Below the pieces are notes generated by a model. It worked only from the letters and a program-made list of their open reading frames with translations. It searched no databases and was not told where the DNA came from. The position numbers and the translations under genes were made by a program. From assembly GCA_947624815.1 (NCBI GenBank), contig CANQME010000002.1, forward strand, positions 4,261-68,260: a stretch of DNA of 64,000 bases. Reading direction: 5' to 3'. Origin of the DNA: an uncultured Lachnospiraceae bacterium. GTDB taxonomy: Bacteria > Bacillota > Clostridia > Lachnospirales > Lachnospiraceae. The first letter of the stretch is position 1, and every line of letters begins with the position of its first letter. This document shows, piece after piece, positions 10,140-12,045 of the stretch.

Positions 10140-10168
10140 TTTACAAGTTCCCGTAAAAAAAGTATGAT
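10140..10168 (+). promoter_or_regulatory. sigma-A promoter for the RyR-DHH operon, back-to-back with the previous promoter
   Basis: TTTACA-17 bp-TATGAT. Confidence 0.6.
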
Positions 10169-10232: not shown

Positions 10233-10544
10233 ATGAGCGAATATTATCCTGCCCCGATCGACACCAGCGGCGTAACCCTCTCGGAGGACCTTAAGGCCCT
10301 GACGGAACGGCTGGCGGAGAATGTCCACGAAAACTGGGCGCTGGGAAGATTAAACGACGGATGGACCTACGGAACGGTAAGAGACGACCTGCACAAGGAG
10401 ACGCCCTGCCTGGTTCCCTACGACCAGCTTCCGGAAAGCGAAAGGGACTATGACAGGAACACGGCCATGGAGACGCTTAAGGCCATCATCCGGCTGGGCT
10501 ACCGAATCGTACCGCAGAAGGAGGAATGCGCCGATGAAGCTTGA
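10233..10544 (+). CDS. Stand-alone RyR (ryanodine receptor repeat) domain protein
   Basis: Y.PAPIDTSGV.L...L.ERLAENVHENWA..R...GWTYG..RDD..K.TPCLVPYDQLPESERDYDR is the RyR repeat signature; AGGAGG RBS. Confidence 0.9.
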   Translation: MSEYYPAPIDTSGVTLSEDLKALTERLAENVHENWALGRLNDGWTYGTVRDDLHKETPCLVPYDQLPESERDYDRNTAMETLKAIIRLGYRIVPQKEECADEA

Positions 10545-12045
10545 AGATCTGCTCCGATTCCGTGAGATCGTGATCCAGTGCCACGACAATCCCGACGCGG
10601 ACGCCCTCGCCAGCGGCTACGGGCTCTTTACCTATTTCCGGCAGAACGGCAAGAACGTCCGGCTGGTCTACGGCGGCGCAAACGCCGTCAGCAAGCGTAA
10701 CCTGAAGCTGATGACCGACCTCTGCCGGATCCCGGCCAGGCATGTGCAAAGGCTGAAGGCGCCTGAGCTTCTTCTGTATGTAGACTGCCAGCCCGGCGAA
10801 AGCAATGTGCAGGACTTTCCGGCCCGGACCACCGCGGTCATCGACCACCACCGGGTCGCTCCCAACAAGAAGCTGCCCGAGCTTCAGCGGATCCACAGCA
10901 ATTACGGCTCCTGCTCCACCATCGTGTGGCAGATGCTGGAGGAAGCCGGATACCAGGTCAACGACAATCCGGACCTGGCCGCCGCCCTGTATTACGGCCT
11001 GTATACGGACACCGGACGGCTGCAGGAGATCTCCCACCCCATGGATAAGGATATGCGGGACTATCTGAACGTCTCGCCCAGCGTGATCACGCTGTTCCAG
11101 AATTCCAACCTGTCCCTCAGAGAGCTGGAGATCGCCAGTCAGGCGCTGGCCGGTTATCATTTCGATTCGAGATATCATTTTGCTCTGATCGACGCCGAAG
11201 CCTGCGATCCCAATATTCTGGGCGTGATCAGCGACATGATGCTGGAGGTGGACGTGGTCCGTACCTGCGTGGCGTACTGCATCCTGAACGGCGGCGTCAA
11301 GTTCTCCGTCCGCAGCTGCGTGAAAGAGACGCGCGCCAACGAGCTGGCCGAATTTCTGGCCGACGGCATCGGCAACGGAGGCGGCCACGCCAGAAAGGCC
11401 GGCGGCTTCCTAAACGGCGCATCTCTCTTCCCGAAGCGCGGCAACGCAGACCGGATCCACTCGGACGTGTTCCATCTCTTAAACCGGAAGATGAAAGAAT
11501 ATTTCCGCGCGGAGAAAGTGGTCCATGCAGGAGCCGGCCATTACGACTGGACGCAGGCCCCCATCTACCGCAAGAAGAGAGTTTCCGTCGGGTATGTGCC
11601 TTCGGCAGAGATGTTCCCGCCTGAAACCCCGGTCATGGTCCGTATGCTGGAGGGAGATTTCGAATTTAACAGAAAAGAAGACTATTTCCTGATGATCGGC
11701 ACGAGCCACGAGGTCTACACCTGCTCGAAGGAAGTCTTCGCCAAGAACTACGAGGCGACGCAGGAGCCCTACGTCATGGAACAGAACTACCGTTCCTTCG
11801 TGAAGAATCTGCAGACCGGCGAGAAGATCGATCTGGCTTCCCACGCAAAGGCGTGTATCCCGAAGGAAACCTCTCTCGTATACGCCTCCAGGCTGGAGGA
11901 AACGATCAAGCTCTTCCCGCTCTGGGATCAGGAAAACTACATGCTGGGACGCCCCGGCGACTGGATCGTGGCGCAGAAGGAGAACCCAAAGGATATCTAT
12001 ATCGTGAAAGAAGATATCTTCGACCGGCTTTACGAGGCCGTCTGA
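10534..12045 (+). CDS. DHH/DHHA1 phosphoesterase with two C-terminal PGDYG-like domains
   Basis: HDNPDADALAS, VDC, IDHH, GLYTDTG, GGGHARKAGG. C-terminal YRKKRVSV...MLEGD...EVYTCSKEVFAKNYE and GRPGDWIV...IYIVKEDIFDRLYE. Start overlaps the RyR gene end. Confidence 0.85.
   Translation: MKLEDLLRFREIVIQCHDNPDADALASGYGLFTYFRQNGKNVRLVYGGANAVSKRNLKLMTDLCRIPARHVQRLKAPELLLYVDCQPGESNVQDFPARTTAVIDHHRVAPNKKLPELQRIHSNYGSCSTIVWQMLEEAGYQVNDNPDLAAALYYGLYTDTGRLQEISHPMDKDMRDYLNVSPSVITLFQNSNLSLRELEIASQALAGYHFDSRYHFALIDAEACDPNILGVISDMMLEVDVVRTCVAYCILNGGVKFSVRSCVKETRANELAEFLADGIGNGGGHARKAGGFLNGASLFPKRGNADRIHSDVFHLLNRKMKEYFRAEKVVHAGAGHYDWTQAPIYRKKRVSVGYVPSAEMFPPETPVMVRMLEGDFEFNRKEDYFLMIGTSHEVYTCSKEVFAKNYEATQEPYVMEQNYRSFVKNLQTGEKIDLASHAKACIPKETSLVYASRLEETIKLFPLWDQENYMLGRPGDWIVAQKENPKDIYIVKEDIFDRLYEAV

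Follow-up and report, generated by a model that had tools for sequence, protein, structure and literature searches.

A DHH phosphoesterase with a PGDYG-family domain recurrently adjoins TIR proteins in Clostridia and is coupled to a RyR protein in one sub-clade

ADP-ribose derivatives made by TIR proteins are immune signals in bacteria, plants and animals. To our knowledge, there is no known host enzyme that turns off 2'- or 3'-cyclic ADP-ribose (2'cADPR, 3'cADPR), and the sole degrader so far described is a phage RyR protein reported in 2026. Here we analysed a 64,000-nucleotide stretch of DNA (the window) from an uncultured Lachnospiraceae bacterium (GenBank assembly GCA_947624815.1, contig CANQME010000002.1, positions 4,261 to 68,260), in which the gene of a stand-alone RyR protein overlaps that of a DHH-DHHA1 phosphoesterase extended by a C-terminal PGDYG-family domain, next to the convergent gene of a TIR-FHA protein. 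RyDEP, a RyR protein of a mycobacteriophage, hydrolytically opens 2'cADPR and 3'cADPR at the ribose-ribose bond, giving ADP-ribose (ADPR); its key residues are H75, W78, H100 and D117, and other phage homologues of RyDEP are nanomolar sponges (PMC13232231). A second phage RyR sponge has been reported (10.64898/2026.06.04.730250), and 29 putative types of Thoeris, in which a TIR signal maker is associated with an effector, have been surveyed (10.64898/2025.12.03.692087).

The locus resembles Thoeris in that a TIR protein with a catalytic glutamate and a sensor-like C-terminus lies beside genes encoding nucleotide-binding domains, and in that such a TIR recurrently adjoins a candidate partner gene. 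In contrast to Thoeris, the partner matches no known effector, PADLOC contains no model matching the RyR or the DHH protein, the DHH gene looks vertically inherited rather than island-borne, and the system is known from its genes alone. The RyR protein of the window shares with RyDEP and RyR-Tad its Pfam family (PF02026), its small size, the His-x-x-Trp motif and dyad aspartate (H32, W35 and D74) and an association with TIR-made cADPR-type signals. Unlike them, it is encoded by the host in a core-type chromosomal context, coupled to a DHH gene and beside the host's own TIR, and the phosphate-contacting histidine is replaced by threonine. DHH, RyR and PGDYG are not named in the text of the 29-type survey or in the supplementary files searched (10.64898/2025.12.03.692087), and a host RyR, DHH or PGDYG component is reported in none of the three 2025-26 preprints (PMC13232231, 10.64898/2026.06.04.730250, 10.64898/2025.12.03.692087). 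A literature search joining Thoeris with DHH returned nothing relevant, and another found no paper naming PGDYG. The components are of known kinds, namely TIR signalling, RyR nucleotide binders and DHH enzymes; what appears not to have been described before is the way they are combined, the presence of the RyR protein in a host and the connection of the PGDYG family with TIR.

The sequence-only reading of this DNA had centred on the RyR-DHH pair. Judged from gene neighbourhoods, what generally accompanies the DHH-PGDYG enzyme is a TIR protein, a link that is absent from that reading. We counted TIR_2 matches within 5 kb of module-carrying genes in a sample of 151 genomes of the same family, and 15 of 26 such genes have one. 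The sample holds 97 TIR matches in roughly 450 Mb, which gives a chance expectation of about 0.2% per gene. In a class-wide sample of 300 genomes, a TIR gene adjoins 10 of 18 loci, spread over four families. Since the genomes are related and hence not independent, any formal test on these counts would come out too strong; the range of TIR architectures and the existence of a fusion carry more weight. The TIR partners show at least five architectures (TIR-β-propeller of ~1000 residues, TIR-FHA, TIR-NPCBM, TIR-MORN and TIR-DUF6273) and lie upstream, downstream or in convergent orientation. Since they differ in both architecture and orientation, the link points to repeated recruitment rather than to one inherited neighbourhood. 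Indeed, one metagenomic representative of 689 residues (P0263) carries TIR_2 (residues 15-107), DHH (residues 205-348) and the PGDYG-family module (residues 489-684) in a single chain. The catalytic glutamate, E83 in the TIR-FHA protein, is invariant in 17 TIR neighbours of the enzyme family, and the TIR-FHA protein is the sole TIR_2 match in the window genome.

The DHH enzyme displays all the motifs expected of the DHH-DHHA1 family, i.e. DHH motifs I-IV (DxD, D, DHH, D) and the DHHA1 GGGH motif. Residues H17, D21, D23, D84, D104-H105-H106, D159 and G283-G284-H285 are invariant in 120 homologues. The DHHA1 score lies under the Pfam cut-off (20.9 against 25.9 bits), but the GGGH motif is nevertheless invariant. 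As every catalytic motif is invariant across the family, the protein should be an active phosphoesterase. The nearest solved relatives of its DHH domain are family II pyrophosphatases (E 3.6e-9) and NrnA (E 3e-6). It shares with NrnA, GdpP, Pde2 and PggH the DHH and GGGH motifs and a two-domain core of similar size. It differs from them by an extra helix and PGDYG-family domain of ~200 residues and by its TIR linkage, which is new, and its similarity to solved members is weak and restricted to the DHH domain (E 1e-6 to 1e-9). A separate NrnA-like DHH gene is present in the same genomes (for instance G000:C11). A complex prediction of the RyR protein with the full DHH protein scored 0.00 and returned no verdict; it was not used either way.

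The C-terminal region had been described as two tandem repeats resembling PGDYG (PF14083), a domain of small phage and bacterial proteins. The resemblance proved real by profile-profile comparison and by fold, but the tandem arrangement was not upheld. Pfam PGDYG scores the window protein at 15.0 bits (E 0.033), against a cut-off of 27, and the two C-terminal stretches are weakly alike (BLASTP E 0.006; hhalign E 8e-4, probability 25%). Some members of the enzyme family have a true PGDYG domain appended, and the decisive comparison used these additional, bona fide domains (Pfam E down to 4e-28). The profile of the whole region is collinear with 103 of their 103 columns (hhalign 98%, E 1.5e-13), repeat 1 corresponding to the first PGDYG half (96.6%) and repeat 2 to the second (94.8%). 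Because the profile runs along a whole PGDYG domain and each repeat matches one half, the C-terminal ~175 residues are, by profile comparison, one divergent and expanded PGDYG-family domain of two SH3-like halves, a relative of the Pfam family rather than a member of it. This domain is ~70 residues longer than PGDYG, owing to an insert between the halves and an N-terminal helix, and its motif is PGDW instead of PGDY.

An AlphaFold model of residues 296-503, built with 62 homologues, is confident, with a predicted local distance difference test score of 92. It predicts a long helix (residues ~305-325) followed by two small β-barrels, SH3-like half-barrels with an insert of ~28 residues. In BFVD, which holds predicted viral structures, 'PGDYG protein' models match this fold locally with a probability of 1.0 and a root-mean-square deviation of 1.7 over 55 columns, and tandem-barrel phage proteins match with E values of 4e-9 to 2e-4. 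Matches in the ESM Atlas reach TM scores of 0.74-0.83, and a cluster partly annotated as PGDYG gives 0.59/0.69. In that atlas the module occurs in DHH-DHHA1 and HAD-DHHA1 proteins, in stand-alone bacterial proteins and in a 226-residue cluster that is 70% viral. A comparison with phage sponges of the Acb and Tad families had also been proposed; the solved ones considered here are Tad1, Tad2, Acb2 and Acb4. Foldseek of the domain against the PDB gave no match at E ≤ 0.001 and no Tad or Acb sponge, and a wide VIA-align search of solved structures returned SH3/Tudor-like barrels alone (Z up to 5.4) and no sponge family; a missing match in these searches does not exclude similarity. The module profile met PDB sequences at chance level (E about 1). 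In phage genomes, tblastn with the module or with a true PGDYG domain gave few matches. Good matches were limited to two unverified faecal scaffolds, MT836910 and MT836060, and the gene context of MT836910 is bacterial. In this scaffold (L079, MT836910.1) a DHH-module gene comes after a TIR-DUF6273 gene, with chemotaxis and peptidase genes around them. Arthrobacter phage Qui gp128 (L103:3105-3653, 182 residues, annotated 'nicotinate ribosyltransferase'), a lead from BFVD, has a hydrophobic N-terminal part and weakly matches half of the module (E 0.0035); no NAD-salvage operon was found around it.

We surveyed the module family via 569 representatives. Class III cyclases occur in 9 of 27 members of odd length, and the module is also joined to a GGDEF protein (P0172) and to a HAD protein (P0266). 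In one locus (L055:335-3666) the order is a TIR gene, a REC-cyclase gene and a separate gene for a module-only protein of 332 residues, while in another (L056:8522-11822) the TIR gene is followed by a single gene for a cyclase-module fusion of 837 residues. The cyclase matches Pycsar PycC models (E 6e-25); one system is seen here in a split and a fused version. A GGDEF-EAL protein (cluster c2) is encoded 1-3 genes upstream of the full-length DHH-module gene in six loci (L038, L039, L042, L045, L047 and L053). This proximity may be inherited synteny, or may hint at a role in pGpG/c-di-GMP turnover. Fragments of cluster c2 are also seen at the ends of L055 and L056, and guaB, purH-like and glnS genes often lie near loci with GGDEF-EAL and DHH-module genes.

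The stand-alone RyR gene that the sequence-only reading saw overlapping the DHH gene by 11 nt was recovered, as were both open reading frames and their Pfam domains; the overlap is exactly 11 nt (10534-10544). An AGGAGG sequence is located 8 nt 5' of the RyR ATG. The DHH start at 10534 is the conserved one, M1 and L3 being found in 97-100% of 120 full-length homologues. The same reading had made its proposal depend on RyR-DHH linkage in other genomes. Such linkage recurs in the closest relatives. Two representatives, P0006 and P0012 (52-54% identical), have a RyR gene of 101-104 codons overlapping the DHH gene by 10-14 nt, with a convergent TIR gene downstream, and a further genome (L080) has this arrangement too. 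The pair is kept in four further loci, each with a convergent TIR, and its overlap is seen in L059, L060-62 and L080; at least four genomes hold it in translationally coupled form. In contrast, it was not found at genus level. Full-length orthologues of the DHH-module gene, 40-47% identical, are present in 22 of the 151 genomes sampled, and the 1.5-kb flanks of the other 21 are all free of RyR genes. Gene order therefore indicates that the coupling is real and confined to one sub-clade, as an add-on to the DHH enzyme.

The RyR protein scores 120.8 bits in Pfam PF02026 (cut-off 27.4) and matches a 103-residue Bacteroides thetaiotaomicron protein (PDB 3NRT) with an E value of 5.5e-36. Its alignment with the first Repeat12 unit of mammalian RyR2 (domain E ~1e-22) spans nearly the entire protein. 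Compared with this unit and with 3NRT, long stretches show conservative changes alone, and the resemblance between the bacterial and animal domains is, at the sequence level, unusually high. We aligned it to the RyDEP sequence taken from its genome record. Three of the four named ligand residues are kept, H32, W35 and D74 corresponding to H75, W78 and D117, i.e. to the catalytic dyad and the adenine-stacking tryptophan of RyDEP. Sponge-type homologues retain the same residues, so that these do not separate cleavage from binding.

RyR domains are associated with TIR genes in another form. Larger Lachnospiraceae proteins of 458-575 residues with a C-terminal RyR domain directly adjoin TIR genes in 6 of 7 loci examined. 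All those examined have a Rossmann-like middle part, and one of them, in L072, also carries a Pfam Ion_trans_2 channel domain. In L076, a RyR-bearing channel-like protein, a TIR-MORN protein and a DHH-module protein are encoded in this order in one operon. From their domain content these loci look like pairs of a TIR and a RyR-gated channel, and host RyR domains accordingly look like putative receptors for TIR products in these bacteria. Examples of the larger proteins are L072:64-1695 (+), with L072:1701-3176 (+), L099-L102 and L076:2095-3468. The TIR/RyR-channel pair may overlap 'type X' Thoeris, which has an ion-channel effector (10.64898/2025.12.03.692087). The window genome itself encodes, on another contig, a RyR protein of 456 residues (P0123, G000:C10:41304-42695 (-), L002:1489-2856) that is 57% identical to the one heading the L076 operon. 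Two hydrophobic helices are predicted in its N-terminal part, and it also contains a GxGxxG stretch and, at the C-terminus, a RyR domain; no TIR gene was seen beside it, the contig end being 2 kb away. P0123 could act as an effector in trans with the TIR-FHA protein of the window.

We tentatively favour a reading in which the RyR-DHH operon handles the nucleotide of a TIR signalling locus, as a host module for the capture and breakdown of the TIR-made signal; we regard it as plausible, though falling somewhat short of probable. The TIR-FHA protein would make a NAD-derived, cADPR-type nucleotide, and the divergent Ser/Thr kinase may switch it on through phospho-threonine binding by the FHA domain. 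Since TIR is accompanied by the RyR protein as well as by the PGDYG-family domain, we read both as binders of this nucleotide. The 103-residue RyR protein would capture it and, like RyDEP, may open its ribose-ribose bond to give ADPR. The DHH-DHHA1 enzyme would hold the nucleotide via its PGDYG-family domain and cut the remaining phosphoanhydride or phosphoester bond. The signal would thus be reset, or held below threshold in unstimulated cells. This reading is supported by the recurrent TIR linkage, by the invariance of the TIR glutamate and of the DHH and DHHA1 motifs, by the coupling of DHH to a RyDEP-like protein and by the pyrophosphatases being the nearest solved relatives of its DHH domain. 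The fusion of TIR, DHH and module in P0263 resembles, by analogy, GGDEF-EAL fusions, which join the maker and the breaker of one signal. The L076 operon already has a candidate effector, which leaves an accessory role for the DHH enzyme. An analogy can also be drawn with ring nucleases, host enzymes that degrade the cyclic oligoadenylate signal of type III CRISPR: there too a host enzyme beside the signal maker turns the signal off, although its fold, chemistry and signal class are unrelated to those of the window enzyme.

Several observations weigh against removal of the signal. The usual substrates of DHHA1 enzymes are 5'-phosphorylated oligonucleotides or pAp rather than ADPR. The lack of a RyR gene at the 21 genus-level orthologues also counts here, as do the 11 loci of the family sample that have no nearby TIR; six of these are in genomes without any TIR_2 match, and the DHH-module enzyme can therefore work without TIR. 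The counterpart of the phosphate-contacting H100 of RyDEP is a threonine (T57 in the window) in all three DHH-coupled RyR proteins aligned, those of the window, L059 and L060. Most of the RyDEP homologues assayed bind the signal without cleaving it (PMC13232231). Fusion of the module to class III cyclases, GGDEF and HAD proteins fits a regulatory sensor better than a substrate clamp. Finally, we infer the ligand and the activity across the whole enzyme family from sequence.

The principal alternative builds on these fusions. It holds that the PGDYG-family domain is the receptor for the TIR nucleotide and the DHH-DHHA1 core an output that degrades a different nucleotide (c-di-AMP/pApA, pGpG, pAp or nanoRNA being candidates), acting either in the manner of a Thoeris effector or by relaying the signal into second-messenger pools, with the small RyR protein buffering the signal against self-activation. 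We consider this rather unlikely, though a serious contender. The module is found joined to enzymes for the synthesis or breakdown of other second messengers, and such a range is the usual pattern of a ligand-sensing domain and is better explained by sensing than by removal of the signal. That both cyclase loci adjoin a TIR gene, that a GGDEF-EAL gene precedes six full-length DHH-module loci and that stand-alone phage copies exist in the ESM Atlas and BFVD, as with receptor-mimicking sponges, is also in line with it. However, a nanoRNase-type activity is not an obvious growth-arresting effector, generator, receptor and effector would be united in the single chain of P0263, a RyR-bearing, channel-like candidate effector is already present in L076, and the enzyme has no counterpart among the PADLOC models. 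Another idea makes the PGDYG-family domain a protein adaptor through which the enzyme would dock to the TIR protein or to a target of that protein, the TIR being a NADase effector rather than a signal maker. SH3/Tudor-like barrels often bind peptides, and TIR is the effector in TIR-STING and TIR-SAVED systems. Nevertheless, the TIR partners carry sensor-type domains of their own (β-propeller, FHA, MORN, NPCBM), like signal-making ThsB-like TIRs, they are too diverse for one conserved docking surface, and the co-occurrence of RyR points to a small nucleotide, which makes docking quite improbable.

The enzyme might instead be a housekeeping one, namely a nanoRNase, pGpG-ase or pAp phosphatase passed on vertically, with an SH3/Tudor-like domain that serves to bind short nucleic acids and with incidental TIR and RyR neighbours. 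Its occurrence in one or two copies per genome, the 40-57% identity of orthologues across genera, its core contexts (guaB, purH, glnS, tRNA synthetases, recO/era), the SH3/Tudor-like nature of the nearest PDB folds and the genomes that have the gene but no TIR match are all consistent with this. We find it improbable, since the same genomes already hold the separate NrnA-like gene, TIR adjacency in the two samples, with its varied architectures, is far above chance, a fusion to TIR exists and the module travels with cyclases beside TIR too. It is very improbable that the RyR gene is phage-type anti-Thoeris cargo of a prophage or island that lies next to the DHH gene by accident. RyR matches are present in 228 phage records, and the RyR proteins characterised so far are phage anti-Thoeris factors (PMC13232231). 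In the window, however, no phage genes were seen flanking the pair, its GC content resembles that of its surroundings, and its coupling to a core-type gene is repeated in other genomes.

A RyR protein that a host encodes together with a phosphoesterase, next to a TIR of its own, would be a candidate off-switch for 2'/3'cADPR. The recurrent pairing and fusion of a PGDYG-family domain with TIR suggest a testable function for a domain of unknown function that is widespread in phages, and point to possible cross-talk between TIR signals and cyclic-nucleotide metabolism. The locus also strengthens the view of the RyR domain as an ancient receptor for cADPR-type ligands. A wider proposal is that the PGDYG family is a new receptor fold for TIR-made NAD-derived nucleotides, coupling TIR to phosphodiesterases and cyclases in Clostridia, that it forms with a host RyR glycosidase the first host off-switch for cADPR-isomer signals, and that stand-alone PGDYG proteins of phages are anti-Thoeris sponges; taken as a whole, this is possible, if unlikely.

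The features of the locus are collected in Table 1. The input of the kinase to the FHA domain is a presumed one. A split sensor, in which the β-propeller of the kinase would be homologous to the TIR-linked propellers, was considered and rejected, the best match (E 0.007 over 53 residues) not being significant.

Table 1. Positions of the RyR-DHH operon, its domains and its neighbours in the window.
Feature	Position	Strand	Basis or remark
Promoter-like site TTTACA-17-TATGAT	10140..10168	+	Ahead of RyR-DHH operon; consensus scan, 10/12 matches, pattern match alone
Stand-alone RyR (R12-type) domain protein, 103 aa	10233..10544	+	Pfam RyR E 3e-35
DHH-DHHA1 phosphoesterase with C-terminal PGDYG-family domain, 503 aa	10534..12045	+	Pfam, family-invariant motifs
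DHH catalytic domain, aa 12-155	10567..10998	+	Pfam DHH E 1.2e-13
DHHA1 domain with GGGH motif, aa 222-294	11197..11415	+	Pfam DHHA1 20.9 bits
PGDYG-family domain, aa ~329-503	11518..12042	+	AlphaFold model, hhalign, BFVD, ESM Atlas
Convergent TIR-FHA protein, 313 aa	12118..13059	-	Pfam TIR_2 E 4e-17, FHA E 3e-18
Divergent Hanks-type Ser/Thr kinase with β-propeller region, 1011 aa	6775..9810	-	Pfam Pkinase E 1.3e-34, PQQ_2

In L078:7046-8493 (MT836850.1), the gene that a stand-alone RyR gene overlaps, here by 4 nt, is not a DHH gene but one with a weak RCK-like match. Like L079, this record is a bacterial-looking faecal scaffold deposited as 'UNVERIFIED Bacteriophage sp.'.

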